A DNA stretch of 55,247 bases from Candidatus Woesebacteria bacterium (GCA_020060105.1 JAGVAV010000031.1:1-55247), one strand, 5' to 3'; counted from the first letter of the stretch, positions 16,743 through 55,247 are shown. Notes: generated from the letters alone by a model not told the origin. Numbers and translations: made by a program.

Positions 16743-16961
16743 TCTATGGGTCGTATTCTCCCTAGTGATTAATTAAAATTATACTTGATTTTTCGAAGAT
16801 AGTCAAGATATCAAGCGGGCACCCACTCCTGAAACACGTTCTCGATTACAATACTCGCAAATTTTAATCTACGACGTAACGACCTTTTTGGGAATTGTTG
16901 TTTTGAAATGGTTTTTGAACAAGATTAGTTGGCAAAGTTATTTATAAGCTGGAGGTTTAAA

Positions 16962-19900: not shown

Positions 19901-20753
19901 TTCAGCACCTTTCGAGTCATTCCAAAAGATAGGAAAGCAAACCGGCATCATATTCTATACTCAAGCAAGCTATACATCGGTTACAGATCCTTTAACTGGA
20001 TTTAGGAAAAATATTTACGTTAGTAATTCTGCTCCAATCGAAAAAATAAAAGTTGCAATAAATAATTTCGAGGAAATTGGTTGGGATGATGTAGTACAAA
20101 GCTACTTCTTCAACTATGACACGAAAAACTTTTCTAATGGTAATGATATCCAATCAAAAAAATGGAAAATCTATGCCAAAGTCCCGCGTATTAAAAGAGA
20201 AAAAGTTAACGGGTACTGGCAATACAACGATGTTGATCCAAACGATATGCTCGAAAAACTTTTTAGGCTCTATGAATTTAAAAACCTTCGCAGTAATATG
20301 CTGGAACAAATCCATGCAAAAGAAACTAATGGGGAGCTTCGAGGGGAACGTGATTTTGATAACAAGCCGAGAAATTTCTATCAGTCATTAGTTTATATCT
20401 TGAATCTTATTTTACAACTAAGAAATTCTACTTCAAAACAGATAAAACTGAACGAAAAAGAAGATGTTTATGAAACAGGAGAAGATGTTGACTTTATCGC
20501 TTCGCCAGCGTATCCATTTTTCACTACGCTTAGCAGTAAATCAAATAGTAATCTCGCGGGCTTCGAAAACCGCTTTACAGGACTAAATCACGATCAGGAA
20601 CAAAAAAAGTTTAATGGGGATGCAAATGGAGCTTATAACATCGCACGCAAGGGAATAATAATTCTTGAAAGGATTACTAAAAATTCAGATAAACCAAATC
20701 TCTATATAAGCAATGAAGATTGGGATAAATTTGTTTCTCAAAGTTACCCCTAG
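16962..20753 (+). CDS. cas12a: Cas12a (Cpf1), type V-A CRISPR effector nuclease
   Basis: GGAGG lies 7 nt upstream of the ATG at 16962; the track's TTG at 16929 is unlikely. The N terminus FTNLYALSKTLRFELRPIGRT is the hallmark Cas12a start. Split RuvC motifs are IIGIDRGE (D844), IVLEDLN (E929) and GDANGAYNIARKG (D1220). A KRY..DKLFFHLPI segment is present and no HNH insert. Length 1263 aa. Confidence 0.95.
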   Translation: MQTKNFMSFSDFTNLYALSKTLRFELRPIGRTEEFFKKNKVFEKDKTINDSYNQAKLYFDEMHRRLIRDALNTQNTSALDYEKYAKHWKELQKDKGKYIQNWKDAQKEFRECISNLLDQQAEQWKSKYASVGLNKADIKQKGTDFLSSAGMVKILKKEFPKEAENQLVKEGFPSLFIQKAEAPEQKQYIFDSFDRFSTYLAKFNQTRDNLYKDDGTPTAIATRVVENFVAFLQNQAIFNNHYISLKSELDFSREEIDCFTANYYVRCLLQEDIDEYNKTIGQINARIKELRDRKQKESDFKKSGYPLLKSLNKQILGKIEKKRQFIENKADVFPAFSELIEQANARLTALRQLINNLCEEVFEEAYGGIYIKNTGINTISRRWFASWYDFEIALPQKSKNEEESKVVTFVSLQDIKDTLENKLSGDIFKEEYYKKKIINKEQSNWKQILAILQNEWNELFSEYQKALENTKKLDLNSVFSNSKEQVEIIKSFADASLRVYQVVKYFALEHKKSDEIPSSYSTDFYEEFDKQYNNFEFIPYYNALRNFLTKKVVGENKIKINFEKGNLLNGWAESPEGNAQFCGYILKKENKYFLGITDQPTILDTKDNPSLTNITDKEYYEKMAYRQLKSTTIYGSGYEGLYNSKYANDKKYISESKIIERVKKLLQEKYLTRFPELKQIIEKEYKDANELAKNLGNFNLYSLEFIPVNKNYIEKLTHDKNGSIKYLYIFEIANKDLGKITPRKYNIHSLYFKNLFSEDNLEKPVFKLSGGAEIFFRPKTVNLPKKKDKAGKDIIDHKRYAQDKLFFHLPIVINFGAGKVGKFNQELNKKLLAGNKNINIIGIDRGEKHLAYYSVINQKGEIIEQDSLNEINGVNYYGLLQKREKERLENRKSWLPLQQIKDLKRGYISQVVYKIVRLAIEHNAIIVLEDLNMRFKQIRGGIEKSIYQQLEKALIDKLGYLVFKDRNAKEVGGVLQGYQLSAPFESFQKIGKQTGIIFYTQASYTSVTDPLTGFRKNIYVSNSAPIEKIKVAINNFEEIGWDDVVQSYFFNYDTKNFSNGNDIQSKKWKIYAKVPRIKREKVNGYWQYNDVDPNDMLEKLFRLYEFKNLRSNMLEQIHAKETNGELRGERDFDNKPRNFYQSLVYILNLILQLRNSTSKQIKLNEKEDVYETGEDVDFIASPAYPFFTTLSSKSNSNLAGFENRFTGLNHDQEQKKFNGDANGAYNIARKGIIILERITKNSDKPNLYISNEDWDKFVSQSYP

Positions 20754-20756
20754 GAT

Positions 20757-21296
20757 ATGGATTCAGCTATACCAATTTCTGCTATAAATGATTTTCTTTT
20801 CTGCCCGAAATCACTCTATCTGCATAGTGTGTATAGCTCCTTTGCGACTAACACCTATCATGACACACCGCAAATCCAAGGCGGAATCGCTCACGAAAAT
20901 ATTGAAAAAGGACAATACACTACCTCCAAACATGTTTTGCAGGGACTATCTGTTTACAGTGAAAGACTAGGGGTAAAAGGGAAAATAGATATTTACGATA
21001 TGGAAAAGGGGTTTTTAATCGAACGGAAATACAGAGTAAAACAGCTTTACAAAGGCTTTCAATACCAGCTCTATGCCCAGATGTATTGCCTGGAAGAAGC
21101 GGGATTTTCTGTGAAGCGGTTGTTTATTCAATCGCTTTCTGATAACAAACGCTATGAAATTGCCCTTCCGGCCGAAAAAGAAAAACAGGAATTTGAAAAA
21201 GTAATTGCCGAAATGAAAGCGTTTAACGCCATCGCTCTTTCAAATCACTCGTGTAGTCGTTGTCAAAATAACATTTATGGATTGTTAAATTGGTAA
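20757..21296 (+). CDS. cas4: Cas4 (RecB-like nuclease)
   Basis: N-terminal Cys (FLFCPKS), D..ExK nuclease motif (IDIYD...LIERKY), QxxxY (QYQLYAQ) and C-terminal CSRC. Sits 3 nt after cas12a. Confidence 0.85.
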   Translation: MDSAIPISAINDFLFCPKSLYLHSVYSSFATNTYHDTPQIQGGIAHENIEKGQYTTSKHVLQGLSVYSERLGVKGKIDIYDMEKGFLIERKYRVKQLYKGFQYQLYAQMYCLEEAGFSVKRLFIQSLSDNKRYEIALPAEKEKQEFEKVIAEMKAFNAIALSNHSCSRCQNNIYGLLNW

Positions 21297-21300
21297 AACC

Positions 21301-22254
21301 ATGTTGACACTTCCTGATTTCAAAGAAAAAAGAATTTTATCTGTTCAGGCCGATTACGGCCACGATAACTTATTGCAGTTAATCAATGACAACATTCGTT
21401 TCGCCCGCGACGGTGAGGGAGTGAGTCAAATATCAAGCCATTTAGTTTTTGCTGTTTTTATTATTGGGGACATGAGTGTTACCACCACTCTTCTTAAAAA
21501 GCTTACTGAACAAGGTATTTCCATTTTTTTTCTCAATCATAATCTGGCCGTAAAGGCGGTGATGATAGCGGAAGCGGAAGGAAATTACCTCCTTCGTCAA
21601 AAGCAGTACACCACAGCCGATGAGTTGAATATTGCAAGAAGAATTGTCGAAAATAAAATAATTTCTCAAGAGGCAGTTCTGAAAAAATGTCAGAAGGCGT
21701 ACCAGCTAAAAGTATTTGAGCGGGCCAGAGTAATGCTAAAAACTGCTAAAGATAGAGAAAAACTACTTGGGATAGAGGGAAACGTGGGGAAAGAATATTT
21801 CCAATCGTTGTTTGCCGATCTGGGCTGGGTTCGCCGTGCTCCGCAAACAAAAGAAGATATCCCTAACCTATTGCTTGATATTGGCTATACCTACCTCTTT
21901 AACTACTGCGACGCGCTCTTGCGCCTGTTTGGCTTTGATACCTACAAAGGCTACTATCACCAGTTATTTTTTCAGCGAAAATCTTTGGTATGTGATGTTA
22001 TGGAGCCGATGCGTCCGATCATTGACTATCAATTACTCAAAAGCTTCAATCTTAAGCAAGTAAAAGAAAAAGATTTTGTCTTTAAAAACGGCAGATTTGA
22101 CTTTAAAGACGGGTTTAAAACCAGTAAATTGTACAGTCCAATATTTTTGGAGACAATAAATGGGCGCAAAGAAGAAATTTACACTTATGTGCTTAACTTT
22201 TACCGTTATATAATGGACAACAAAAAGTATCAATTCCCGAAATTTATTATCTAG
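21301..22254 (+). CDS. cas1: Cas1 integrase
   Basis: 317 aa with GIEGNVGKEYF and GYYHQLFFQRKSLVCDVMEPMRPIID, which follow the Cas1 E/H/D-E active-site pattern. Sits 4 nt after cas4. Confidence 0.9.
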   Translation: MLTLPDFKEKRILSVQADYGHDNLLQLINDNIRFARDGEGVSQISSHLVFAVFIIGDMSVTTTLLKKLTEQGISIFFLNHNLAVKAVMIAEAEGNYLLRQKQYTTADELNIARRIVENKIISQEAVLKKCQKAYQLKVFERARVMLKTAKDREKLLGIEGNVGKEYFQSLFADLGWVRRAPQTKEDIPNLLLDIGYTYLFNYCDALLRLFGFDTYKGYYHQLFFQRKSLVCDVMEPMRPIIDYQLLKSFNLKQVKEKDFVFKNGRFDFKDGFKTSKLYSPIFLETINGRKEEIYTYVLNFYRYIMDNKKYQFPKFII

Positions 22255-22258
22255 ATCT

Positions 22259-22540
22259 ATGCTTATTGTCTCGTACGATTTTGCCAACGATAAAACCAGA
22301 ACAAGGTTTGCCAAGTTTTTAAAAAAGTATGGCTGGCGGATGCAGTATTCCGTGTTTGTGGTGAAAAACAGCCCCAGGATTTTACGCAACATTTTGACGG
22401 AAATCGATGCCCGCTATCAAAAGTTGATTAAGGACACTGACAGCATCGTGATTTTTCCGGTGTGTCTGAGTTGTAAAGGAAAAATAATCAGGTACGGTTG
22501 CGCAAGACATGAGCTTGACAATGTGGTATACTTTGAGTAA
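22259..22540 (+). CDS. cas2: Cas2
   Basis: 93 aa with an MLIVSYDF...RTRFAKFLKKYGWRMQYSVFVV ferredoxin-like Cas2 signature. Sits 4 nt after cas1. Confidence 0.85.
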   Translation: MLIVSYDFANDKTRTRFAKFLKKYGWRMQYSVFVVKNSPRILRNILTEIDARYQKLIKDTDSIVIFPVCLSCKGKIIRYGCARHELDNVVYFE

Positions 22541-22722
22541 GAACACTAAGTCAAATACGGGTAGCACATTGACAACTAATGACTAAAGTGGAAGTGTTAC
22601 TGTTTATATTTGAAGAAACCTTAGTCTTTATGAGCCTGTTTTTTGTTATTTTGAACTTAAAACCTAAAGTCTTCGCCAGCTGGCGGATTGCATCTTTAGC
22701 TTGTTCTGACAAGAAACAGGCT
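22541..22722 (+). promoter_or_regulatory. CRISPR leader (AT-rich)
   Basis: 182 nt between the cas2 stop and the first repeat. It contains a repeat-like half-site (22551-22570) and the palindrome CGCCAGCTGGCG (22674-22685). The promoter itself was not pinpointed. Confidence 0.5.
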
Positions 22723-23256
22723 CTCAAATACAAATAGTCCATTTCTACTTTTGTAGATAGCCAACTTCTTTTGCATTGCGATCTTCTCAAATACAAATAG
22801 TCCATTTCTACTTTTGTAGATAGATTTCTATTTGGCGGGGCGGCCCAACCTCAAATACAAATAGTCCATTTCTACTTTTGTAGATCACAAATAGTACCCA
22901 TCATCTGTCACTCAAATACAAATAGTCCATTTCTACTTTTGTAGATTCTTCCATTTCGCTTGCCTCTCCCAAACTCAAATACAAATAGTCCATTTCTACT
23001 TTTGTAGATCTGCCGAGAGGATCGGCTCCGGCGACTCAAATACAAATAGTCCATTTCTACTTTTGTAGATTACTGGTAGAAGTGTTGCTTTGTGCCTCAA
23101 ATACAAATAGTCCATTTCTACTTTTGTAGATCTACTAGGGCTCCAAACGGCGGTAGCTCAAATACAAATAGTCCATTTCTACTTTTGTAGATGAGATAGC
23201 ACTCTCTGCAAGTCTTTGCTCTCAAATACAAATAGTCCATTTCTACTTTTGTAGAT
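22723..23256 (+). CRISPR. CRISPR array: 9 identical 36-nt repeats and 8 spacers (25-28 nt)
   Basis: Repeat is CTCAAATACAAATAGTCCATTTCTACTTTTGTAGAT, starting at 22723, 22786, 22850, 22911, 22974, 23035, 23096, 23157 and 23221. Its 3' end folds as TCTAC-TTTT-GTAGA, which is the Cas12a crRNA handle and sets plus-strand orientation. Confidence 0.97.
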
Positions 23257-23277
23257 ACGAAACAACCAAACTAACAC

Positions 23278-23861: not shown

Positions 23862-26800
23862 GTGGAAATCGGCAGTAACACCAACGTCAAAGGAACGGTG
23901 ACCAAGGCGGATGGAACCACGCCGATTCCTTTTGTTAATGTCTACATCTATAATAGTAACTGGACAAGCTATTACTACACCTACACGGATAAAAACGGAA
24001 ATTATGGTTTTGGTGACATCCCGGCCGGCAGTTATACCTTCTCCGTCTACTCGCCTCCTGCAACCAACGGAGAAAACTACTATCCCCCGGCTAACTCCAC
24101 CATCACCGTGGAAAGCTCTGGGGCAACCACGAAAAACATAAGTTTCTTGGCGGCCACTAAAACCCTCACCGGCCAAATTACCCGAACTTCCACCACCGGG
24201 GCGACAATCGCCGTTACCGACGCCAACGTTTGGGTCTCCAAGATTGGCGGTAATGGCTGGGCGAACGCTAACACCGACTCTTCAGGCAATTACTCCCTGA
24301 CTTTAACGGGAGGTTCCTGGTATATCGGCGTTAACCCCACTACCTGGCCTTCAGATTGGACTTACACTTATTCCAGTGAAACCATTTCTTTCGCGGACGA
24401 CACCACCACGGAAAGTAAAACTAAAAATTACACCGTGGAATCTCTTAACTCTACGGTCAACGGAAGTATTAAAAAGCCTGACGGATCTACCCCGGCTCAG
24501 TATTCCGTTGGTCTGAACTTATCCAACACCAAAAATCAATGGTATTACGCTTCGGTGGACGCTTCGGGCAATTTCACCGTCAAGGTCACCGCCGGAACCT
24601 ACTCCGTCAGTGGTTGGGTCACCGACTCAAATTACTCTTTTCCCAAGGTCGCAACTTTCACGGTTAATGAGAGTGAAACCAAAACTCTCGAGACCATCAC
24701 TTTGGTTGAAAAATCCGACACTATCTCGGGAACGATCTTGGATAATTTCGGCTCGCCGGTGGCCGGAGCTTCGATCAATGGCTGGAAAAGCAACGGCAGC
24801 TGGGACTGGTCAAGTGCCACCACCGATACGAACGGAAATTACACTCTAAAAGTCACTCCCGGCACTTGGCAAGTGAACGCTTGGCCTCAATGGGATTCAG
24901 GTTATGTTTACTCAGGACAGCCAGTCTCCGTCAGCGTCACTTCCGGAGTCACCGCGACTAAAAACTTTACTTTCCAAAAAGCCACCGTCACCGTTAATGG
25001 CACGGTCACTGATCCGGACGGTAACGTGCTCACTACTCTCTATGCCTGGGCCTCAGCCAACGACGGCTCCCAGCAGTGGAGCAATGTTGGGGCTTCGGTT
25101 AACAACGGAAAATTCACCATGAAAATTCCCGCCGGAACTTGGGATATTAGCGTCTACATCTACGCCGCTGAATACGGCAGCCCAGATCCAAAGAGCATCA
25201 CCGTCGTTGATAATGAAACGGTCTCCGTCACTCTTGCCGCGGTTAAGTACGACGCCACGATCAGCGGCACGGTTTACGATGAATCAAACAATCCAGTCAC
25301 TAGCACTTGGATGAGCATCTACGCCACTAAAGGTAAATACGGCGCTTGGCAGTCGGCTAACTTTGATCAAGCCAATGGAACTTATTCAATCAAAGTTTCG
25401 GCCGGAACTTGGAAGTTAGGCTGGTGGGTTGATCCCAACTTGGGCTACAGCTCAGGAACCGGCCAAGACACTGAGGTTACCGTCGCTTCCGGAGAAACTA
25501 AAACTCACAATATTACCCTTAAAAAAGCGGATTCTACCATCAGCGGAACCGCAAAAAATTCAGAAGGCGGGGCGGTGGCTTGGGCTTGGGTTAACGCCGA
25601 TTCGCGAGACCCGAACGAAAAAGTTTCGGCTGACACCTACTATTATAGTAACGGTACTTCCAGCGCGAGCACCGGAGAATACACCCTCAAGGTTCCGGCC
25701 GGAACCTACTGGGTTGGGGCAAACATGTGGCCCGGGTCTGGCTATATCAATCCAAAACGAGAAAAAGTCAGCGTCGACGCCAATAATCCGGCCACGGTTA
25801 ACCTAGTTTTCCGCAAGGCTGACGCCAGCATAACCGGTAAGGTCACCTTAGACGGCACTGGGACAAGCGCTTTTATCAGCGCCTATAGTGAAGACGGCGG
25901 ATACGCCGAAACCAATTCTAGCAACGCTGGTGAGTACACTCTTTCCGTTTCCAGTGAAACCAAGTGGCATCTGAAAGCGATCAAACAAGTCGATAAAGAC
26001 ATTTATAAATCCAGCGAGGCAATCGTCGATCTGACCCAGGCCACTACAGGCAGTCAGGATTTGGTTCTGGCCAAAAAGAGCTATTCCTTACCCGACGCCG
26101 TCACCGTTACCTTTGACGCGACAAAACAACAAACGATCAAGCTTGACGATGAAACGACTATCAACATCCCAGCCAACACCGCCACCTCTTCCGGAAACGT
26201 GACCCTAACCGCTCAACCTGAAGCCAATCTGGCCGAAGAAGCCGACGCCAAACCCGTTTCATACGGCTACGATCTTAACATCGTCGATTCCAACGGGAAG
26301 GAAATTACCGAATTTACCGGTAACGTCACCATCGAGGTTAAATACGAAGACGAATGGATTACCGACAGTGGTTTAATTGACGAGAAAGAGCTAAAAGCCG
26401 CTTACTATGACGAATCAGCTGGAACCTGGATAGAGCTGGGCAGCGTGACGGTCAATGAAACGGAAAAAACAGTCACCTTCCAAACTGACCACTTCACAAA
26501 ATTTGCCGTAGTCGGAGCGGCCGATACCACCCCGCCCGCCGCGCCCACTAACCAAGCCGCGAGTGCCGGGGACAGTAAGGTAAGCTTAAGTTGGACCAAT
26601 CCAACTGACGCGGACCTTAACGGAATCAATATTTATCGCTCAACCACTTCTGGAGTCCTGGGAACGCGAGTTCATAGCAGCGTCACGGGGACTAGTAAAG
26701 ACGATACGGACCTAACTAACGGGACAGCTTACTATTACACCTTAAGAGCGGTGGATAAATCAAACAATGAGTCTACCAACACCACTCAAATCTCCGCCAC

Positions 26801-26966
26801 TCCTTCAGCGGCCGCTTCTACAACAACTACTACCACTACAACTACAAGTACAAGTAGCAGTAATCTTCCCGAAACCGGCCGAGAAACAATTTCGCTAGTA
26901 ACTATTTTAACGCTCCTTATTATCAGTTTCTTATACTTAACCTTTCCCCACCGGCGTTTTTCCTAA
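23862..26966 (+). CDS. Large surface protein with carboxypeptidase-regulatory-like repeats, FN3 and a Thr-rich stalk, ending in an LPETG sorting signal (C-terminal part of the split gene)
   Basis: Many repeats of the form G(T/S)(V/I)xDxxGNPV...V...tdxxGnYtl. Also FN3 (VSLSWTNPTDADLNGINIYR), a poly-Thr stalk, LPETG (26865-26879), a TM helix and an HRRFS tail. This frame is open from 23748. Confidence 0.75.
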   Translation: MEIGSNTNVKGTVTKADGTTPIPFVNVYIYNSNWTSYYYTYTDKNGNYGFGDIPAGSYTFSVYSPPATNGENYYPPANSTITVESSGATTKNISFLAATKTLTGQITRTSTTGATIAVTDANVWVSKIGGNGWANANTDSSGNYSLTLTGGSWYIGVNPTTWPSDWTYTYSSETISFADDTTTESKTKNYTVESLNSTVNGSIKKPDGSTPAQYSVGLNLSNTKNQWYYASVDASGNFTVKVTAGTYSVSGWVTDSNYSFPKVATFTVNESETKTLETITLVEKSDTISGTILDNFGSPVAGASINGWKSNGSWDWSSATTDTNGNYTLKVTPGTWQVNAWPQWDSGYVYSGQPVSVSVTSGVTATKNFTFQKATVTVNGTVTDPDGNVLTTLYAWASANDGSQQWSNVGASVNNGKFTMKIPAGTWDISVYIYAAEYGSPDPKSITVVDNETVSVTLAAVKYDATISGTVYDESNNPVTSTWMSIYATKGKYGAWQSANFDQANGTYSIKVSAGTWKLGWWVDPNLGYSSGTGQDTEVTVASGETKTHNITLKKADSTISGTAKNSEGGAVAWAWVNADSRDPNEKVSADTYYYSNGTSSASTGEYTLKVPAGTYWVGANMWPGSGYINPKREKVSVDANNPATVNLVFRKADASITGKVTLDGTGTSAFISAYSEDGGYAETNSSNAGEYTLSVSSETKWHLKAIKQVDKDIYKSSEAIVDLTQATTGSQDLVLAKKSYSLPDAVTVTFDATKQQTIKLDDETTINIPANTATSSGNVTLTAQPEANLAEEADAKPVSYGYDLNIVDSNGKEITEFTGNVTIEVKYEDEWITDSGLIDEKELKAAYYDESAGTWIELGSVTVNETEKTVTFQTDHFTKFAVVGAADTTPPAAPTNQAASAGDSKVSLSWTNPTDADLNGINIYRSTTSGVLGTRVHSSVTGTSKDDTDLTNGTAYYYTLRAVDKSNNESTNTTQISATPSAAASTTTTTTTTTSTSSSNLPETGRETISLVTILTLLIISFLYLTFPHRRFS

Positions 26967-34636: not shown

Positions 34637-35083
34637 TTAAACAACCGCCTCTTCTATCTGTCCCCCCGCTTTTTCTATTTTCTCTTTGGCAGACTTAGTC
34701 ACCGCTACTTTTACCGTTAACGGAACACTAACTTCTCCACTCCCGAGCACCTTAACTTTGGCCTTAACTTCGTTTGGTTTGATCAAACCGGTCCTTATCA
34801 AACCGGCCTTATCAACCACTTCATTTTCTTTAAATTTTTTACTTAAAGTATCTAGGTTAATCTCTAAGAGTTTCGAAACTTTTGGCGGATTTCCTATTCC
34901 CCGGCGCTGGGGCAGCCTTCTTACCAACTGGCTAATTTTAAAACTGGCCCCAACTTTTTCCCGCGCCTTTTGCCCCTTTATACCTCGACCGGCAGTTTTC
35001 CCTTTACCGCTGGCATGGCCGCGACCGACTCTTTTACTTCTTCTTATGTAACTTTTTAACTTTTTAAAATTATTTAACTGCAT
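34637..35083 (-). CDS. rplO: 50S ribosomal protein L15
   Basis: [24 protein letters not shown]. The start overlaps the rpsE stop by 14 nt. Confidence 0.93.
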
Positions 35084-35687
35084 TTTGAACCTCAGCTTTA
35101 GGTTTCCTGATCTTCTTTTCTTTTTCCTCTTTTTTTATCTTCTCTTTTTTCTCCTCAGCTTTTTCTTCTTTCGACTCAGGCTTTTCTTCTTTCTTTTCTA
35201 GGTGGTCTTTTTCTTTCTGATTTTTCTCTTTTACTTCTCGCGGCCTTAAACTCTTTAACGCCTCCAAAGCCGCGTAAACATTCGAAGCTTGATTAGACGT
35301 TCCCAAAGCTTTTGATAAAATATCGTGAATTCCGGCCGCTTCGACAACCGCTCGAACTGCGCCACCCGCAATTACGCCTGTTCCAGGGGAGGCCGGCTTA
35401 AGAAAAACTCGGGCGGCCCCGCGTTTAATCAAAATTTCATGAGGAATAGTTGTTCCCGTCAGAGGTACGTTAATAAGGTGTTTTTTAGCGTAACTTACCG
35501 CTTTTCTTATTGCTGGCTGAACCTCTGGCGCCTTCCCTAAACCAACCCCCACCCGGCCCTTTCTGTCCCCAACCACCACTAAAACAGAGAAACCAATTTT
35601 ATTTCCACCCTTGGTTTTCTTGGAGACTCGGTTAACTTGAACAACTTTTTCTTCAAATTCCTTAGATTCTTTATCAAACTTGACCAT
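35070..35687 (-). CDS. rpsE: 30S ribosomal protein S5 (about 45-aa Lys/Glu-rich C-terminal tail)
   Basis: [39 protein letters not shown], followed by a [31 protein letters not shown]... tail. Confidence 0.93.
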
Positions 35688-47761: not shown

Positions 47762-48184
47762 CTATTTCCTTGCCTCCTTAACTCTTTTAGTCCCATATCT
47801 TGAACGGCCTTGTTTTCGATTAACGACGCCGGAAGCGTCTAAATGGCCTCGAATAATGTGATACTTTACCCCAGGCAAATCTGGTACTCGACCGCCCCTA
47901 ACGATAACAATCGAATGTTCTTGAAGCTCATGGCCAATTCCAGGAATGTAAGCGATAACTTCTTTTCGGTTGGATAGTCTAACCCTGGCAACTTTCCTCA
48001 AAGCTGAGTTTGGTTTTTTCGGAGTGGTTGTTTTGACGATAGTACAAACCCCTCTTTTTTGAGGCGAAAAGGTCGGCACACTCCTTCTTTCTCGAGCATT
48101 AAAAGAGCTCCGAAGGGCCGTTGCCTTGACCTTTTTAGTCACTTTTTTTCTTCCTTTTCGAACTAACTGTGAAATTGTCGGCAT
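47762..48184 (-). CDS. rpsL: 30S ribosomal protein S12
   Basis: The ATG at 48184 ([14 protein letters not shown]...) is the likely start. [17 protein letters not shown] and [17 protein letters not shown] are present. Confidence 0.96.
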
Positions 48185-48311
48185 AATAAACTTTCCTTCC
48201 AACAAGGAAACCCCGCTTTAATCGGGGCTTGGACGTAAGAAAAACCAATTACTTACTTAAATAGGTAAGATTAAGGTTTCTTAACCCCCTTCCATGTTTT
48301 CAACCGCTCAC

Positions 48312-48365: not shown

Positions 48366-50090
48366 TCACAGTTGCCAATCCCTTTTCAAGTAACTAAAAT
48401 CTATTCCGTTAACTCTATTGTCTGAATAAATGTCTGCCGAAGAAGTCGCGGGGTTAAACCAATTGTTAAAAAGAATCGCCGCGTCGGTAGCGTTAACTAA
48501 GTTATCGTTATTTAAATCAGCAGAGCCGGTTATTGGGACTGCTCCATATTGAGCCAGGATTGGATAGATGGTGTTGGTCACAGAGAAGTTTTGAAGTTCT
48601 GGATTGTAAACATCATAAGGATCACCTGGTTCTAAAGTATAATATTTAACCAGATGAGTTCTAAATTCTTCCCTGATTCTCTCTTCCATCGGCCAGGGCC
48701 ACAAGAGTTGTGCAGGAGTGCCGTCTGAACCGTCCTTTAAGACTCCATCAATATATCTATACTGCAATCTGGCTCCTCCTCCTTGATACGAAGTGTCTCC
48801 AATAAAGCTGTCTTCAATACTTGAATAACCCTCAAGACCATAACCATTTACCCCGGCTCCTTCAGCTGGCTCGGGATCACCGATACCGTTATTGACAGCA
48901 GTAACCCGGACCAGTCGGTTATTACTTCCGCCACTGTCACCAGTTATTCCTACTCCCCCATTACCCCAGGCAAACAAATCCTGAATTAAGGTATCAACCA
49001 CTGGATCAATAATACCAGCTCCTTTACGCACGCCATTCCAACCAGAAAGTTGAGTACACTGTCTATTGGCATAAGTTCCCCCATAAGGATAAGGACAAGG
49101 CCAAGTCATGGAAGTTCCATCCCATTTCATCCCCATCCCAATAGCCATAGAACCTAATATTTTATTACCGGAAACGTTAGCCGCTACTCCACTTTGATTC
49201 TGAATGTTGAAACCATTGGTGGCCATTCCATAAACAATGTTGTTTTCAATGGTGTGATTAGCCCCACCATAGAGTTCTATCGTGTCCTGCCACGGCCAAG
49301 CACCAGGATCAAAATTTATTCCTCTCCATTCCAAAGAAGCAGCAAAGCAACGACGGAAAGTGTTATTTGACCCGCCAAAGCTATAAATCATCTTTCGACC
49401 TGAACCAGCCGCCACACAATCTTCAACCAAATTATTACTGTTATTTGTCAAGAGTCCTATGACGGCAGCGTTCTCATCAGTGTGAGCATTATAGGCAGAG
49501 ATCCGGCGTAAGATATTGTTATGTCCCCAAATACTAATCGTACCGTATCTCCCGTTTTTAACCACCAGTCCCTCAACAACAAAGTAATTTCCGACTGGGT
49601 TTTGGCCAGATTCACCCGTCCAGGTATCTCCTAAGTGAAAAGGTACTAAGTCTCCTATCCCATCACCATTTGTATCTCCATCAATAACAGCCTTACCATC
49701 ATTTTTAGCTCTAATGGTAATAGGTTTGCCAGCCTCTCCATTTCTTTTGTTCGGATTTAACCTTTGACGATAAACTCCATCAAGTAAGATGAGAGTATCT
49801 CCAGGATAAAGCAGTTCCCAGGCTTTATTAAAGGTAGCTAAAGGAGTAGTTTCAGAAAGGCCATCATTTTGATCATTACCGGGCGGAGAGGTTGGGGAGA
49901 TGTAGTAAGTCGTTCCACCAGTTTGAGCTTGAGTTTCAGAAGAAAAGTTAAAATTCTTCGGAAAGAAATTAAAGATAAGGTAAGAAAGACTAAAAAAGAG
50001 AGTAAAAAGTAAAATTAATTTTGGAAACTTCACCTTAAATAACTTAGCCTTGACTAGAAGTTGTAAATTGGAAATTCTAAATTTTATCAT
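48366..50090 (-). CDS. Secreted right-handed beta-helix protein with C-terminal dockerin
   Basis: N-terminal signal/anchor and beta-helix-type repeats (NNILRRISAYNAH, NNLVEDCVAAGSG, NNIVYGMATNGFNIQN). The C-terminal duplicated Ca-binding segments are DLNNDNLVNATDAAIL and DIYSDNRVNGIDFSYL. Confidence 0.65.
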   Translation of the reverse strand: MIKFRISNLQLLVKAKLFKVKFPKLILLFTLFFSLSYLIFNFFPKNFNFSSETQAQTGGTTYYISPTSPPGNDQNDGLSETTPLATFNKAWELLYPGDTLILLDGVYRQRLNPNKRNGEAGKPITIRAKNDGKAVIDGDTNGDGIGDLVPFHLGDTWTGESGQNPVGNYFVVEGLVVKNGRYGTISIWGHNNILRRISAYNAHTDENAAVIGLLTNNSNNLVEDCVAAGSGRKMIYSFGGSNNTFRRCFAASLEWRGINFDPGAWPWQDTIELYGGANHTIENNIVYGMATNGFNIQNQSGVAANVSGNKILGSMAIGMGMKWDGTSMTWPCPYPYGGTYANRQCTQLSGWNGVRKGAGIIDPVVDTLIQDLFAWGNGGVGITGDSGGSNNRLVRVTAVNNGIGDPEPAEGAGVNGYGLEGYSSIEDSFIGDTSYQGGGARLQYRYIDGVLKDGSDGTPAQLLWPWPMEERIREEFRTHLVKYYTLEPGDPYDVYNPELQNFSVTNTIYPILAQYGAVPITGSADLNNDNLVNATDAAILFNNWFNPATSSADIYSDNRVNGIDFSYLKRDWQL

Positions 50091-50173
50091 GGCTTAAGCT
50101 AATTATGTCAAAGGAAAGCTTCTTTGTCTAGTTTGAGAATAGATGCCTTATAGCTGGCTCTGATCAAATTCTC

Positions 50174-51148
50174 TCATTTATCCCAGTTGCCTAAAAGGAC
50201 AGTCAAATCAAAGATATTAATTCGCGAGTCTTGGTTTAGATCTGCTTCTCCCATATTTTTGACCCAACCCCACCGACGAAGCAGCTCGGATAAATCAAAA
50301 ATATTAACCTTTCCGTTTCGATCCAAATCGCCTTTTTTCGGTTTCACAAAAGGAAGGTCGATCTTTGGCAGGCTTATCTTGGGCAGTTCGATCAGCGGTA
50401 AACTAATCTGAGGTAAAATAACCAGGCCCGGCTCTTCTTCCTCTTCTGGGGCCGGTTCTGAACTCGGTTCAGGAGAAGCCGGAGTAGAAGGCGTTTCCGA
50501 ATCCTCTTCCTCCTCATTAACAGGATTTTCCTCGTCAGAAGACGGGTTAGAAGGGTTTTCCGAATCCTTTGGAGAAGCAGGCGGGGGAGGAGGGGGCGGC
50601 GGAGGAGGTGAAACTACTTCGTATGAACCGCCAAGGCTTGCCGCCAAATCCAAAGTATCTTTACTATCCGAAGCTCGAGGCGCGGCCGAGCCGGAAGCGA
50701 AACTAACTCCCGCCGAACCAACTGACTTCCCTTTAAAAACAATCTCAAATACCTTAAGTTCGCCGCTTAAACCCTCATAATTTCCTCTAGTCACTTCCAC
50801 TTTTCCTTCGCTTAGTAACTCCTCTACTCCAAGATTGAAAGAGGAGTTATCGGTATTAAGAGAAACTACTTCCAGTAAGTCTGGGGAGTAAGTCAAAACA
50901 ACGGTGATCGCATTAACAACAACCGAATCAGCCTTTAAGAGCACCGAAACGTTAAGTTGATCGCCTTGGTTAATCGACCCGGAGGAAGGAGAAAGGGCAA
51001 GAGTGGAACTATCCGTTGCCTCCGAAACCGCCGTTTCCTCCTGAAACTCGACTCTTAAACCGCTGGTGAAAATAAGAAATAAGGTGGTTATCAGTAACCA
51101 GTGTAAGCGGTGGTGAAACTTTAATTTTTTTAGCATGTCCATGGCCAA
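50174..51148 (-). CDS. Cohesin-like module, Pro/acidic linker and dockerin (adaptor scaffoldin candidate)
   Basis: Signal helix, then a cohesin-like module (LALSPSSGSINQGDQLNVSVLL...VSFASGSAAPRASDSKDTLDL), a P9 linker, and dockerin segments DLDRNGKVNIFDLSELL and DLNQDSRINIFDLTVLL. The start may be the ATG at 51142 or 51136. Confidence 0.6.
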   Translation of the reverse strand: MAMDMLKKLKFHHRLHWLLITTLFLIFTSGLRVEFQEETAVSEATDSSTLALSPSSGSINQGDQLNVSVLLKADSVVVNAITVVLTYSPDLLEVVSLNTDNSSFNLGVEELLSEGKVEVTRGNYEGLSGELKVFEIVFKGKSVGSAGVSFASGSAAPRASDSKDTLDLAASLGGSYEVVSPPPPPPPPPPASPKDSENPSNPSSDEENPVNEEEEDSETPSTPASPEPSSEPAPEEEEEPGLVILPQISLPLIELPKISLPKIDLPFVKPKKGDLDRNGKVNIFDLSELLRRWGWVKNMGEADLNQDSRINIFDLTVLLGNWDK

Positions 51149-51195
51149 CCCTATCTTCCTTGCAGATTAACACTTTTTAAAGGCCCTTTTTCACC

Positions 51196-51231
51196 GATCA
51201 GTCCAGTTCGGCTCGCCGAACTGGACTGATC
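51196..51231 (-). terminator. Perfect 16-bp stem / 4-nt loop hairpin between two cohesin genes
   Basis: GATCAGTCCAGTTCGG-CTCG-CCGAACTGGACTGATC. A T tract (TTTCTT) lies on the plus side only, so terminator function for the minus-strand genes is uncertain. Confidence 0.4.
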
Positions 51232-51254
51232 TTTCTTGGCCTTAAGTTTTATCT

Positions 51255-52463
51255 TCAATACGTGGCGTTGCTATCTTTTTGCTGTCTGTTTTTCCACCAC
51301 TTCCAGGCAAACGGACCGACCGCGACAGCCAAACCTACTAGAAGCAGTATGATTATCCCCAAGTAAAGCGGGTTAATCCCAAACTCTTCGGCTTTCTTAG
51401 CCGGAGCGCTGAAAGCCACTTCAAAGTTCTGAGGAGTATCTGAATCTGTAACATCAATTTCTGAAGTTTCTTTTTTCTCCGCCGTCGCCACAATCACCAC
51501 ATGCTTACCCAAGGTTACATTTTCAAATACCGCTACCCCTTCATCGTTTGTTTTCGCCGTTAACGGCTCGCTGTAGAGGAAAACGTCAGTATTGGCCAGA
51601 GGGGTGCCTTTTTCATCTAAAACTTTAACGTAAACCTGGTAACCGATTAACTGAAGGGGAGTGTTTTCCCCAACCGTTTCATTACCCGCCGCATCCTTTG
51701 ATTTCACTCGAAAATGAATTTTTGCCCCCGGGGTTAAGATCGCGCTTTCCAACTTTAAGCTGTGATCAGTTTCCATATCGTCTTTGGTCACGCTAAGAAA
51801 GTATTTGCCTTGTTCTAGACCGTATTCGACAAAAGAATTGGCTTTTTCATCCGTCTTCCAGGTAACCACGGCGCTGTTTTTAGTAATTGAAGTCACGCTC
51901 AACCCGGAAATCTTGGGGGCGGTGGTGTCTTTTGGCTCTTCTTTCTTTGGTTCAGCTTTAACCACCTCGTAAGAGCCTTTCCCACTCCCGCCTAAGTTTA
52001 AAGAATCGCTGCTATCAGAAGCTCTCGGAGCGGCCGATCCAGCAACAAAAGAAATCGCCGCATTCCCTAAGGCTTTACCTCGAAATCCTATCGTCGCCAC
52101 CGTCACGTTACCGCTAACCGGATTAACGTTGCCTCGAGAAATCTTAACACTTCCCCCTCCATAAGTCTTTTCCGCTTCAATCGCGAAGGCCGACCCGTTA
52201 GTGCTAACCCAAGCAACATCCAATTTATCGGCCGGGTACGAAACAAAAGCCGAAACCGCATTCACCGAATCCCCGCCCGTATTAAGCCGGACTTGAACAG
52301 AGAGAGTTTGTCCTTGCTGAATCTTTCCGCTAGCGGGAGAAAGATAAAGCGTCGAGGCAAAAGCGGACTTAGCTTGAAGAAAAAGAAACACGAAGGTCAA
52401 CAAAACTAAAAATATCAGGACTTTTATCGGTTTAGATAAAAGCATTAACCTTAGATTAACCAT
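51255..52463 (-). CDS. Cohesin-like module, FN3 and Ig-like domain with a C-terminal TM anchor (anchoring scaffoldin candidate)
   Basis: Signal helix, cohesin-like module (LYLSPASGKIQQGQTLSVQVRL...ISFVAGSAAPRASDSSDSLNL), FN3 (ISGLSVTSITKNSAVVTWKTDEKANSFVEYG) and a C-terminal helix LYLGIIILLLVGLAVAVGPFAW followed by KWWKNRQQK. Confidence 0.6.
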   Translation of the reverse strand: MVNLRLMLLSKPIKVLIFLVLLTFVFLFLQAKSAFASTLYLSPASGKIQQGQTLSVQVRLNTGGDSVNAVSAFVSYPADKLDVAWVSTNGSAFAIEAEKTYGGGSVKISRGNVNPVSGNVTVATIGFRGKALGNAAISFVAGSAAPRASDSSDSLNLGGSGKGSYEVVKAEPKKEEPKDTTAPKISGLSVTSITKNSAVVTWKTDEKANSFVEYGLEQGKYFLSVTKDDMETDHSLKLESAILTPGAKIHFRVKSKDAAGNETVGENTPLQLIGYQVYVKVLDEKGTPLANTDVFLYSEPLTAKTNDEGVAVFENVTLGKHVVIVATAEKKETSEIDVTDSDTPQNFEVAFSAPAKKAEEFGINPLYLGIIILLLVGLAVAVGPFAWKWWKNRQQKDSNATY

Positions 52464-52548
52464 ATAGGCAGCCTCCTAAAAAGTACTTTAACTTGTTATC
52501 TCACTTTAGTTATTTTTGAAATCTTGCGCCAATCTTTATCAGCGTTGG

Positions 52549-55095
52549 CTATTTCGTCCAGCCTCTTAAGAGTATCGAGAGGTCAAAGACATTCACTCTT
52601 CCGTCGCTGTTTAGGTCTTCCGCGTCAGCCGACTGGTTCCATCTTCTGAGCATCATCGACAGGTCAAAGATATTGACTTTCCCGTCCCGGTTGATATCCG
52701 GACCCTTTGGCGCGGGTGTAACTGGTGGTTGCGGTTGTTCTGGTTGAGGCGGCTCTGGTGGTTGAGGAGGTTCGGGTTGTTCTGGATCCGGAGCAGCCGT
52801 GCTAAAGGTGTAATTTTCGGTGTAGGAAGTATTTCCGGCCGCGTCCGCGCTAACTATTCGGTAGTTGTAAGTCGTCCCGGCGGTCAAACCAGTCAAAGAT
52901 ATCGAATGCGACTTGGCGTAACCTCCAACTGAGACAGAATCAGAGTAAGTGGTGCTGGTCCCATAGTCCACCACCGTCGTAGCGTCCTCGTCAGTGGTCC
53001 AGGAAACAACCGCACTAGTTTGAGTAATGTTGGCCGCGTTTACCCCACTAATGCTCGGGGGTGTGGTGTCGGGAGCGGCGCTTGTCGTAAAGGTCTGATT
53101 GGCACTTCTCGCTGTATTACCAGCTCCATCAGTACTAATTACCTGATAGTGATAAGTTGTACTAGCAGTCAAACCGCTGATCGCCACAGAATGGCTCGTC
53201 ACTAGGCTTGAATCCAAAGCGGTGAAGTTATCATAGTTTTGGCTAGTTCCATATTCAACTTGGGAGGTTGAGCCCTCATCCGTCGACCAGCTAATAACTA
53301 CTGAGCTGGCGCTGATATTTGAAGAAGATACTCCAGAAATTGCCGGAGCGGTCGTATCCGGAACAGCGGTGGTGGTAAAGGTCTGATCCGTGCCTCGACC
53401 GACATTGCCGGCTGAGTCAACGCTTATTACTCGGTAATGGTAAGCCGTCGAGGCGCTTAAGCCTGTGACGGTGACCGAATGGCTGGTCTTAGGATTCGAA
53501 TCAACGGTTGTTGATAAATCGTAAATCATTGCTGTTCCGTATTCAACCTGGGAAGTCGCGTTTTCATCAGTCGTCCAGCTAATCACAACTGAAGTTGGCG
53601 TAACATCAGAATGAGAAACTTGAGAAATTACCGGAGGAGTGGTGTCCTGCTGAGTGGTGTTTACCGTAAAGTTACTCGAACTAGTCACGCTTAAGTTCCC
53701 ACTCGTGGTAACCGTAATCGGTCCGGTCGCCGCGTTAGCCGGCACAGCAGTACGAATCTCAGTGCTGCCCCAGCTGGTAATACTCGCGCTTACATTGTTA
53801 TAGAATCTGACACTTCCTTGAGTCGAGCCGAAATTAGTTCCAGTAATCGTCACGCTGTCTCCCACCACCCCTGAAGTCGGGCTAAAGCTGGTGATGGTTG
53901 GGTCTAGCTGCGCACCAACGGTGGTGGTGAAGGTATAATCGTTGCTACGAGCCTCGTTATCTGCCGCGTCAACGCTGATCACTTGGTAATGATAAGTCGT
54001 GCTGGCAGTTAGCCCGCTAATATTGACGGAATGACTAGTCACTAAATTAGTCGTTTGAGTCGTGGAGGAACCATACCCTGTCGTTGTGCCATACGCGACC
54101 TGAGAGGTCGCTCCTTCATCAGTGGTCCAAGTAATCGTCACTGAAGAGGCCGTGACATTAGTCGCACTGACCGCAGAGATTGTCGGAGCGGTAGTGTCTA
54201 GCGGAGCGGTTACGGTAAAAGTGGTGGTCGGTGAGCCATTCACGCTGTTAACCGTCACCGCTACGGAGCCTTCGCTTAAGCCCGCCGGGACAACAACCTC
54301 AATTGACGAATCCTGCCAGCTATTGATTGTCGCCGCGGTGCTGCCAAAGTAAACTGTTCCCTGCGAAGTCCCAAAGTATTGTCCCCCGATCGTGACCACT
54401 GTTCCCGCCGAACCTGAAGCTGGAGTAATACTGGTAATTGAGGCGGGAGTATCGGTGGCCACGGCAATTGAGATGGAATTGGTGTTTGTCAAAATATCTG
54501 ACGGGGTCGCTGTGGTCGTGGAAGCGTGCTCTACCACGTTAGAATCCGTGGTCACCCCGGTGGTGTGGTCAAAAGAAATAGTCGTGCTGGAAGTAGCCGC
54601 TAAGGCCGTAAAAGTAATCGTGGCAAAAAGCCCAGCCGAACCGCTTGCGTTGGTATAAGAAGCCGAAGGGGTAGAGTTTGCCTCGTCCCAGGCCAAACCG
54701 CTTAGGTAAATCTTTCGATCCGCCGCCCGAGCCGCATCCAAGCCAGCGCTGCAGGTCGTACCGCAGTATTTGCCAAAAATTTGCCCGGGAGTTACTTGGC
54801 TAACAGATAAAACATTGGGATCATAGTTTAAAACGGTATCTACCGCGTCAATGAAGTTGGTATTCGCGTCAAAGTTAATGACCACGTCAAAAGTTTGCCC
54901 TCTGGTAACGTTACTTTGAGAAGAAACCAAAGACAAGGTCACCGGCGTAACGGCCGCTTTACCTTTGAAACTCGTTTGGGTCTGAACTAAATAAACGGAA
55001 ATAGGCAAGGCAATTGCGAGGAAAAATGTCAATAAAACTAAAAAGAGATTATCCTTTATTAAAATAATTTCACTTCTTTTGGGCATCTTAAACAT
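52549..55095 (-). CDS. Large secreted protein: cohesin-like module, 2 IPT/TIG, 4 FN3, Pro-rich linker and dockerin
   Basis: N-terminal anchor helix and a cohesin-like module. Two ITS(I/F)(T/S)PxSG...V(T/I)I(G/T)G..FG units, four ~95-aa FN3 repeats (DTT(A/P)P.IS.VS...V(T/S).SSV.I.W.TDE..TSQVEYGT...YHY.VIS.D.AGN), a PEPPQP linker, and dockerin segments DINRDGKVNIFDLSMML and DLNSDGRVNVFDLSILL. Confidence 0.65.
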   Translation of the reverse strand: MFKMPKRSEIILIKDNLFLVLLTFFLAIALPISVYLVQTQTSFKGKAAVTPVTLSLVSSQSNVTRGQTFDVVINFDANTNFIDAVDTVLNYDPNVLSVSQVTPGQIFGKYCGTTCSAGLDAARAADRKIYLSGLAWDEANSTPSASYTNASGSAGLFATITFTALAATSSTTISFDHTTGVTTDSNVVEHASTTTATPSDILTNTNSISIAVATDTPASITSITPASGSAGTVVTIGGQYFGTSQGTVYFGSTAATINSWQDSSIEVVVPAGLSEGSVAVTVNSVNGSPTTTFTVTAPLDTTAPTISAVSATNVTASSVTITWTTDEGATSQVAYGTTTGYGSSTTQTTNLVTSHSVNISGLTASTTYHYQVISVDAADNEARSNDYTFTTTVGAQLDPTITSFSPTSGVVGDSVTITGTNFGSTQGSVRFYNNVSASITSWGSTEIRTAVPANAATGPITVTTSGNLSVTSSSNFTVNTTQQDTTPPVISQVSHSDVTPTSVVISWTTDENATSQVEYGTAMIYDLSTTVDSNPKTSHSVTVTGLSASTAYHYRVISVDSAGNVGRGTDQTFTTTAVPDTTAPAISGVSSSNISASSVVISWSTDEGSTSQVEYGTSQNYDNFTALDSSLVTSHSVAISGLTASTTYHYQVISTDGAGNTARSANQTFTTSAAPDTTPPSISGVNAANITQTSAVVSWTTDEDATTVVDYGTSTTYSDSVSVGGYAKSHSISLTGLTAGTTYNYRIVSADAAGNTSYTENYTFSTAAPDPEQPEPPQPPEPPQPEQPQPPVTPAPKGPDINRDGKVNIFDLSMMLRRWNQSADAEDLNSDGRVNVFDLSILLRGWTK

Positions 55096-55247
55096 TATTT
55101 ATTTCCTTAATTAATATTTTGACGAACTTTCAGACACTTGTCAAGACCCTGTCCTGGATCAGTACTTTTGAGACAATCCTCCTTTTAAGTAACACTGATA
55201 AGGTGACTGGTATTTAAGTGATTGGTGCGGTCTAACATTATTGTACC

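Follow-up and report, generated by a model that had tools for sequence, protein, structure and literature searches.

A putative two-tier cohesin-dockerin surface display cluster in a Microgenomates-group bacterium

Described cohesin-dockerin systems and the four-gene cluster

In Clostridium (Acetivibrio) thermocellum, the type II cohesins of SdbA and OlpB bind the type II dockerin of CipA, and the type I cohesins of CipA bind the type I dockerins of the enzymes. Here we describe a four-gene cluster (genes A to D) at positions 48366-55095 of a 55,247-nucleotide contig from a Candidatus Woesebacteria bacterium (GCA_020060105.1 JAGVAV010000031.1:1-55247; this whole stretch is referred to as the window). 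The cluster resembles the SdbA/OlpB-CipA-enzyme hierarchy in that two cohesin and two dockerin classes are encoded by clustered genes, with a putative cell-bound cohesin anchor (protein B), a putative adaptor bearing a cohesin and a dockerin (protein A), and a putative cargo protein with a C-terminal duplicated Ca-loop dockerin (protein D). Unlike the C. thermocellum system, the anchor here has a C-terminal transmembrane (TM) helix instead of surface-layer homology (SLH) modules, each protein carries one cohesin and not nine, neither a family 3 carbohydrate-binding module (CBM3) nor an X-module beside the anchoring dockerin was detected, the cluster holds no cellulases, both dockerin classes match Pfam Dockerin_1, and the host is a small-genome bacterium within the candidate phyla radiation (CPR). 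The ScaE-ScaB-ScaA-ScaC system of Ruminococcus flavefaciens is comparable in its small adaptors of one cohesin and one dockerin that alter or widen the repertoire, as in proteins C and A, and in its single-cohesin anchor, ScaE; however, ScaE is sortase anchored, the dockerins and cohesins of that system are type III and divergent in sequence, and the system is devoted to plant fiber.

Non-cellulosomal cohesin and dockerin modules were reportedly the subject of a 2009 article by Peer et al. in FEMS Microbiol Lett (291:1). As among such modules, the cohesins and dockerins of the cluster occur singly, on proteins that have no connection with cellulose degradation; C and A combine both modules on one chain, as do some non-cellulosomal proteins; and the fold matches of the B module include the non-cellulosomal cohesin 2xdh and the cohesin-like modules of Clostridium perfringens glycosidases (2jh2, 2vo8, and 2w1n). 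The CPR origin of the cluster and its partner domains (TIG, FN3, transthyretin-like, and beta-helix) also place it in this class. What sets it apart is a conserved, syntenic pair of anchor and partner genes across a CPR lineage and a dedicated family of TM-anchored cohesins. For CPR genomes, annotations of dockerin-like and "cellulosome anchoring" surface proteins have been published: Kantor et al. (2013) termed similar genes "cellulosome-related" in a one-sentence annotation (PMC3812714), and Wang et al. (2023) described an essential dockerin-domain protein, SEML1_0315, in Saccharibacteria (PMC10633639). Both are annotations of a single sentence and, unlike the present analysis, describe neither a partner cohesin nor specificity classes, an anchor family, or synteny. 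In the searchable literature, we found no account of the TM-anchored cohesin family, of its syntenic alpha-dockerin partner, or of the two specificity classes.

The four genes are successive minus-strand open reading frames (ORFs), exactly where a sequence-only reading of the window had placed them, and they fill the region in the transcription order A, B, C, D, with gaps of 83-106 nt (Table 1). The modules which that reading had assigned (cohesin, dockerin, TM anchor, and beta-helix cargo) also held when examined by Pfam, AlphaFold2, Foldseek, and hydropathy; an NCBIfam scan of A-D gave no informative match. We consider it reasonably likely that the cluster encodes a non-cellulosomal, two-tier cohesin-dockerin surface display in which B anchors A (and C) and the cohesin of A holds D.

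Modules of the proposed anchor, adaptor, and cargo proteins

Protein B comprises, in order, a signal peptide, a cohesin (residues 37-168), an FN3 domain (184-264), a transthyretin-like CarboxypepD_reg domain (277-345), a TM helix, and a basic tail. Cleavage of the signal peptide was predicted after SAFA36, at a canonical site between AFA and ST that is conserved among orthologues. Structure prediction of the N-terminal modules had been proposed as a check and was run on the B module with a 34-sequence alignment; the resulting AlphaFold2 model was all beta, with a mean predicted local distance difference test (pLDDT) score of 94.6 and a predicted template modeling (pTM) score of 0.88. When this model was compared to PDB with Foldseek, ranks 1-22 were all cohesins (TM-scores of 0.65-0.78; E values down to 2.7e-9), of which the best was 6kgf_C, CohA2 of Clostridium acetobutylicum in a dockerin complex (E = 2.7e-9; TM-score, 0.78), and the second best was 2xdh from Archaeoglobus fulgidus (TM-score, 0.73); further matches were 1g1k (C. 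cellulolyticum), 4ums, and ScaB and ScaE of R. flavefaciens. This indicated that the B module has a cohesin fold. In the alignment of orthologues, a nearly invariant GGSAAPRASDSSDSLNLGGS segment lies between the last two strands, and conserved positions also fall on several predicted strands. A Kyte-Doolittle scan found a second hydrophobic segment in B alone among A-D, and the helix is followed by KWWKNRQQK, within a basic tail (KWWKNRQQKDSNATY; 51258-51302) that is predicted to be cytoplasmic; the sequence-only reading had already noted a TM helix and basic tail in this one cohesin protein without a dockerin. Orthologues of B (168 matches at 42-58% identity) are nearly all 385-435 aa long with the same architecture and are named Candidatus Daviesbacteria, Levybacteria, or "Patescibacteria group"; by these matches, B is a conserved Microgenomates protein family.

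A dockerin type I repeat consists of a loop with D1, D/N3, D/N5, D/N9, and D12, followed by a helix. The claim that A, C, and D each end in a duplicated Ca-binding dockerin was confirmed in two ways. Dockerin_1 (PF00404) scored 32.7 bits in A, 28.2 in C, and 31.0 in D, above the Pfam gathering score of 22.9 (that of Cohesin, PF00963, a nine-stranded jelly-roll beta-sandwich, is 24.1), and a six-frame regular-expression search for the Ca-loop half-site over the window returned exactly six matches, two in each of the three proteins. The repeats are tandem pairs of an EF-hand-like loop and helix of ~22 residues at the extreme C terminus, with one exception to the half-site pattern, a Tyr at position 3 in the second repeat of D (DIYSDN...). 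Two dockerin classes were distinguished. The alpha dockerin of A and C reads D-[LI]-[DN]-x-x-G-[KR]-V-N-[IV]-F-D-L-S-x-x-L-R-x-W, twice and nearly symmetrically, and the beta dockerin of D reads DLNNDNLVNATDAAILFNNW / DIYSDNRVNGIDFSYLKRDW, the second-repeat consensus of beta dockerins being ...VNG[IV]DF..L.K[RD]DW. The cohesins likewise fall into two classes, B-type in B and C and A-type in A.

Protein A comprises an N-terminal helix (residues 16-37), a cohesin, six Ig-like domains in the order TIG, FN3, TIG, FN3, FN3, FN3, a P/Q/E linker (769-799), and a dockerin. Pfam scored its cohesin at 34.5 bits and recognized TIG twice and fn3/Pur_ac_phosph_N four times, and its PDB sequence matches were the CipA/SdbA cohesins and the CelS dockerin. 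The sequence-only reading had held that all three cohesin modules share a ...GSAAPRASDS...GSYEVV ending; this is true of B and C only, and the cohesin of A is ~21% identical to that of B and lacks the SFxxGSAAPRASDSxDxLxL...GSYEVV motif. Indeed, only the first ~58 residues of the A cohesin align with the B-type profile (hhalign E = 9e-5), and by sequence it is a distinct, distant cohesin subfamily (A-type).

Protein C comprises an N-terminal helix (17-31), a cohesin (~48-179), a poly-Pro/acidic linker, and a dockerin (274-324; 50177-50329). Its cohesin is 41% identical to the B module (E = 4e-39), which makes B and C clear paralogues, and the hidden Markov model of the B-type cohesin scores C at 171.8 bits. 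A search of 5.8 billion proteins returned no close orthologue of C. One relative of the same architecture, P0324 (308 aa), has the N-terminal signature, a cohesin of 35% identity, and an alpha-like dockerin of 46% identity.

Protein D comprises a helix (25-43), a beta-helix (~60-515), and the beta-type dockerin (525-574; 48369-48518). Signal peptide cleavage was predicted between ETQA and QTGG, the orthologues having AQA or ASA before QTGG. The beta-helix that had been recognized in this dockerin-only protein was recovered by Pfam (Beta_helix, and Chondroitinas_B at 30.7 bits over the N-terminal ~50 residues only), by an AlphaFold2 model with a right-handed beta-helix (pLDDT, 85.6), and by Foldseek, which matched it to rhamnogalacturonan/pectate lyases of polysaccharide lyase family 9 (PL9), alginate lyase/chondroitinase B of PL6, lacto-N-biosidase of glycoside hydrolase family 136 (GH136), and xylosidase of GH120. 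Two orthologues (P0140 and P0141) are 56% and 49% identical to D overall, yet their beta dockerins are almost identical to that of D. Homologues of D are widespread outside the CPR (named matches came from Acidobacteria, Anaerolineales, and Caldilineaceae) and carry modules of the CBM6 or CBM35 type in place of the dockerin, and many charged residues, among them D131, E173, R196, E223/D224, and R232/K233, are invariant in the family alignment. D is best described as a putative beta-helix carbohydrate-active enzyme, family unassigned, in which a dockerin replaces the CBMs of its non-CPR homologues.

The family to which the B cohesin belongs is large. A B-type cohesin profile matched 6470 clusters (50% identity) at E ≤ 1e-3, 1591 at ≤1e-10, and 104 at ≤1e-30. 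Among the best 150 matches, 136 new representatives were sorted by architecture, giving 53 of the anchor type with a C-terminal TM helix, 16 short "free" cohesins, 14 with cohesin(s) plus a dockerin, and 53 outside these classes. Some B-type relatives have 3-9 tandem cohesins. One of them, P0261 (2276 aa, on a 14.8-kb JGI metagenome contig), has nine Pfam Cohesin stretches (275 bits), Big_7, FN3, and a terminal alpha dockerin, and the relatives therefore include real scaffoldins with several cohesins that would fit the same anchor, whereas the window has none. P0273, P0344, and P0287, together with P0261, are relatives with 4-9 tandem cohesins.

Gene neighborhoods and the proposed assembly

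Loci with B-type cohesins (45 in all) were gathered from species-representative genomes, metagenomes, and encoding contigs; 31 anchor-type orthologues for which the sequence extended 200 nt or more upstream were assessable. At 26 of these 31 loci, the gene immediately upstream of the anchor, on the same strand and with a gap of -12 to 143 nt, encoded an alpha dockerin at its C-terminal end, usually as two copies of DLNxDGKVNIFDLSILLRNW. The upstream proteins ranged from 122 to >1870 aa and were otherwise unrelated in content: a GH5 cellulase plus M23 peptidase at locus L003, a LamG protein at L012 (where an alpha-dockerin-bearing M12 metallopeptidase also lies downstream of the same anchor), FN3 only at L010 and L014, and adaptors with an A-type cohesin in the window and at L009, L001, and L021. 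The alpha dockerin was by far the most conserved part of these proteins and was nearly invariant across loci, compared to 47-75% identity for the B cohesin. This conserved adjacency, together with the conservation of the dockerin, is the main reason for assigning alpha dockerins to B-type cohesins; adjacency of this kind is the pattern expected of a receptor and its ligand, and we infer the pairing from gene neighborhood only. Beta dockerins were found in the window (D) and at L009 only, and in each case a gene for an A-type adaptor lies upstream of that for the anchor. The complete arrangement recurs at L009, where an A orthologue (Cohesin, two TIG, FN3, and alpha dockerin) and the anchor are followed by three beta-dockerin proteins, one of them a PQQ beta-propeller. 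All of the beta-dockerin proteins have signal peptides of the AQ(A)|QT type (xAQA|QT). A phmmer search of the gathered loci with the A cohesin returned A itself only, and a small profile of the A-type module found relatives at L009, L001, L021, and L005. Since beta dockerins occur with an A-type cohesin at two of two loci, the beta dockerin was assigned to the A-type cohesin, on a thinner basis. The roles of anchor, adaptor, and cargo proposed in the sequence-only reading thus gain support from the 26 loci and from the layout of L009.

In the assembly we favor, B would be a type I membrane protein whose signal peptide is cleaved and whose cohesin sits at the tip of a stalk made of the FN3 and transthyretin-like domains, with the C-terminal TM helix and basic cytoplasmic tail fixing that stalk in the membrane. 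The B cohesin would be the receptor for the alpha dockerins of A and C. A would dock on B by its alpha dockerin, its rod of six Ig-like domains (two TIG and four FN3) would present its cohesin, and that cohesin would bind the beta dockerin of secreted D. If an alpha dockerin does bind a B-type cohesin, C could dock on B and thereby present another B-type socket for extension or branching, could associate with itself head to tail, or could compete with A. The outcome would be tethering of a polymer-degrading enzyme and of long Ig-like arms at the cell surface that is exchangeable and, to judge from the family, Ca dependent. Such a display would probably serve attack on, or attachment to, the glycans of a substrate or host cell.

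The same modules might instead form a true cohesin-dockerin system that is wired otherwise, with the B cohesin taking the beta dockerin and the A cohesin the alpha dockerin, or with promiscuous binding and no hierarchy. Cellulosomal systems are known to include cohesin-dockerin pairs that cross-react or bind in dual modes, and the pairing proposed here was drawn from gene order only. However, it is the alpha and not the beta dockerin that lies beside the anchor at 26 of 31 loci, and most such loci show no A-type cohesin, so that their alpha dockerins need another receptor, for which the adjacent B cohesin is the sole candidate seen; we regard a different wiring as unlikely. It would be more surprising still if the modules were look-alikes that do not pair, the cohesin-like ones serving as Ig-like or glycan-binding tips and the dockerin-like ones as Ca-dependent wall or glycan tags or adhesins, on four independent surface proteins. 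Such a view would accommodate the failure of Pfam Cohesin to detect the B module, the proposal, in a passage of PMC10066038 that cites Peer 2009, that non-cellulosomal dockerins are adhesins, and the essential dockerin-domain protein of a Saccharibacterium, described with no cohesin partner (PMC10633639). Against it, both the recurrent, tight adjacency of anchor and alpha dockerin and the extreme conservation of the dockerin and of the strand-8/loop motif of the cohesin would be difficult to account for if no direct functional link existed, and the structures that match best are those of cohesins in complex with dockerins.

The term "cellulosome-like" in the sequence-only reading fits the architecture of the cluster and not its function. 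A true cellulosome, i.e., a multienzyme complex that degrades plant cell walls, was rejected and is in our judgment very improbable: the cluster has no multi-cohesin scaffoldin, CBM, cellulase, SLH module, or sortase anchor. Pfam and NCBIfam scans of A-D found no CBM or GH family, Pfam gave no SLH match in A-D, and there is no LPXTG in the C-terminal sequence of B. The "cellulosome-related" label of Kantor et al. (PMC3812714), the GH5 cellulase with an alpha dockerin at L003, and the existence of relatives with tandem cohesins would speak for a cellulosome; but each of A, B, and C has a single cohesin, the sole enzyme-like cargo of the cluster is the unassigned beta-helix protein D, and the cargo at related loci includes M23 and M12 peptidases, LamG proteins, and PQQ beta-propellers and is not a cellulase set.

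Several observations weigh against the two-tier assembly or against parts of it. In the Cohesin profile search that had been proposed as a check, A passed (34.5 against 24.1 bits), C fell just under the cutoff (22.8), and B gave no match at E ≤ 1. Five of the 31 anchors (L006, L011, L019, L015, and L040) have no upstream dockerin gene. At three of these, which are Daviesbacteria-like loci, a protein of 564-574 aa with a Thr/Pro/Ser-rich C terminus and no dockerin precedes the anchor (L006, 8241-9935; L011, 8238-9941; L019, 6145-7869), overlapping it by 4 nt in L006 and L011 and lying 48 nt from it in L019; in L006 and in L011, which is on the 1.1-Mb contig JAQTZF010000001.1, a giant protein of 1985-3059 aa comes after the anchor. 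The loci with the Thr/Pro-rich protein may represent an alternative partner system. The pairing of the A-type cohesin with the beta dockerin has a basis of two loci only, and the Foldseek matches of D are to generic beta-helices with TM-scores of only 0.3-0.5. Both A and the large alpha-dockerin enzymes have a long N-terminal helix (~20-22 residues) that may stay uncleaved and act as a signal anchor; if so, they would themselves be tethered to the membrane and B would be unneeded for their retention. Finally, the cluster lies at the end of the 55,247-bp contig, and upstream components may therefore be missing.

A wider proposal, which we find possible but doubtful, is that the single-cohesin anchor and its alpha-dockerin partners form a lineage-wide, exchangeable docking platform on the surface of Microgenomates/CPR cells, with a conserved specificity pair of its own, that mounts enzymes degrading cell walls and glycans (GH5, M23, M12, and beta-helix lyase-like) and long Ig-like arms with which the cells would attach to hosts or feed on them; it would belong to the core of an episymbiotic apparatus and not be a fiber machine, and proteins like C would polymerize into chains. 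A system of this sort is unsurprising in principle. Its interest lies in the fact that CPR/Patescibacteria surface organization and engagement with host or substrate are largely unknown, most of the surface proteins being annotated as "hypothetical." The pair of anchor and alpha dockerin offers a concrete, testable protein-protein code for CPR surface biology, and a near-invariant dockerin that marks clients of the anchor would make a "docked surfaceome" predictable from sequence. Candidates for enzymes of host attack also emerge (the GH5-plus-M23, M12, and beta-helix proteins). The system would supply a compact, orthogonal cohesin-dockerin pair for synthetic biology and is a corrective to the usual annotation of such genes as signs of cellulose degradation.

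Some related loci had further features. Giant alpha-dockerin proteins of 1627-1870 aa stand beside anchors at L003 (5055-9977), L024 (2304-7916), and L038 (119-5002), each with an N-terminal cytoplasmic stretch of ~35 aa and a TM helix; in that of L003, a GH5 glycosidase is joined to an M23 peptidoglycan peptidase-like domain, and all three are candidates for enzymes that attack host cell walls. Short cohesin-only proteins of 176-188 aa at L013 (5740-6303), L016 (9929-10495), and L017 (9920-10450) have a signal peptide and a B-type cohesin without stalk, TM helix, or adjacent dockerin gene, and might serve alpha-dockerin proteins as soluble decoys or as cross-linkers. The species-representative records of L010, L012, L014, and L016 are titled "uncultured Gammaproteobacteria" (TPA_asm), and their B-type modules are 47-65% identical to that of the window; these labels are probably wrong.

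Flanks of the cluster and other features of the window

The features of the cluster are listed in Table 1. A promoter candidate upstream of A is weak, and promoter and terminator scans of the region gave match counts no higher than those in shuffled sequence. The 106-nt gap between B and C contains a perfect hairpin with a 16-bp stem (51196-51231; GATCAGTCCAGTTCGG-CGAG-CCGAACTGGACTGATC) that lacks a U-run on the coding (minus) strand. The hairpin might act in RNA stability or attenuation and so determine how much B is expressed relative to C.

Table 1. Positions of the cluster features in the window
Feature	Position	Strand	Description	Basis
Gene A	52549..55095	-	848 aa, proposed adaptor	ORF + Pfam
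Gene B	51255..52463	-	402 aa, membrane anchor	ORF + Pfam stalk domains
Gene C	50174..51148	-	324 aa, proposed extender, competitor, or self-associating unit	ORF + Pfam
Gene D	48366..50090	-	574 aa, proposed cargo	ORF + Pfam
A-type cohesin of A	54481..54954	-	residues 48-205	Pfam Cohesin (residues 62-195); PDB 3kcp_A, E = 2.4e-4
Alpha-type dockerin of A	52552..52698	-	residues 800-848; DINRDGKVNIFDLSMMLRRW ... DLNSDGRVNVFDLSILLRGW	Pfam + half-site regular expression
B-type cohesin module of B	51948..52367	-	residues 33-172; conserved GSAAPRASDSSDSLNLGGS loop	AlphaFold2, Foldseek; loop by alignment
C-terminal TM helix of B	51303..51368	-	residues 366-387	Kyte-Doolittle scan
Sigma-70-like promoter match upstream of A	55116..55144	-	weak	10/12 positions

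Directly downstream of the cluster is the str/S10/spc ribosomal-protein block, beginning with rpsL (47762-48205), followed by rpsG, fusA, and tuf. A link between the cluster and the ribosomal str operon was considered and rejected: rpsL has a promoter of its own, with a perfect sigma-70 consensus (TTGACA-17-TATAAT), and orthologues of B occur elsewhere in unrelated contexts. In the spc operon, the gene for ribosomal protein S5 (35070-35687) overlaps that for L15 (34637-35083), and there is therefore no space for an L30 gene between them; loss of L30 (uL30) is a known CPR trait (PMC9297842). On the strength of the names of the B orthologues and the absence of L30, the host was treated as a Microgenomates-group CPR/Patescibacteria bacterium.

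Two other surface-type proteins with stalk domains of the kinds seen in A and B are encoded in the window, both without a cohesin or dockerin: one at 14087-15355 (minus strand), with FN3 and Big_13, and one of 1034 aa at 23862-26966 (plus strand), with CarboxypepD_reg repeats, in a GC-rich stretch (0.51). A low-GC island at 16929-23257 (GC content of 0.31-0.37, compared to ~0.44 elsewhere) holds a type V-A CRISPR-Cas locus, consisting of Cas12a/Cpf1 (16929-20753; 1274 aa; RuvC_1 at 277 bits, REC1, and NUC), Cas4 (20757-21296), Cas1 (21301-22254), and an array at ~22720-23257 with ~9 repeats ending in ...TCTACTTTTGTAGAT; CPR genomes do not commonly encode CRISPR-Cas (PMC4742961). At 7610-10355, a NuoF-like flavoprotein gene adjoins that of an [FeFe]-hydrogenase large subunit (Fe_hyd_lg_C, 304 bits), a pair consistent with a fermentative, H2-evolving metabolism.

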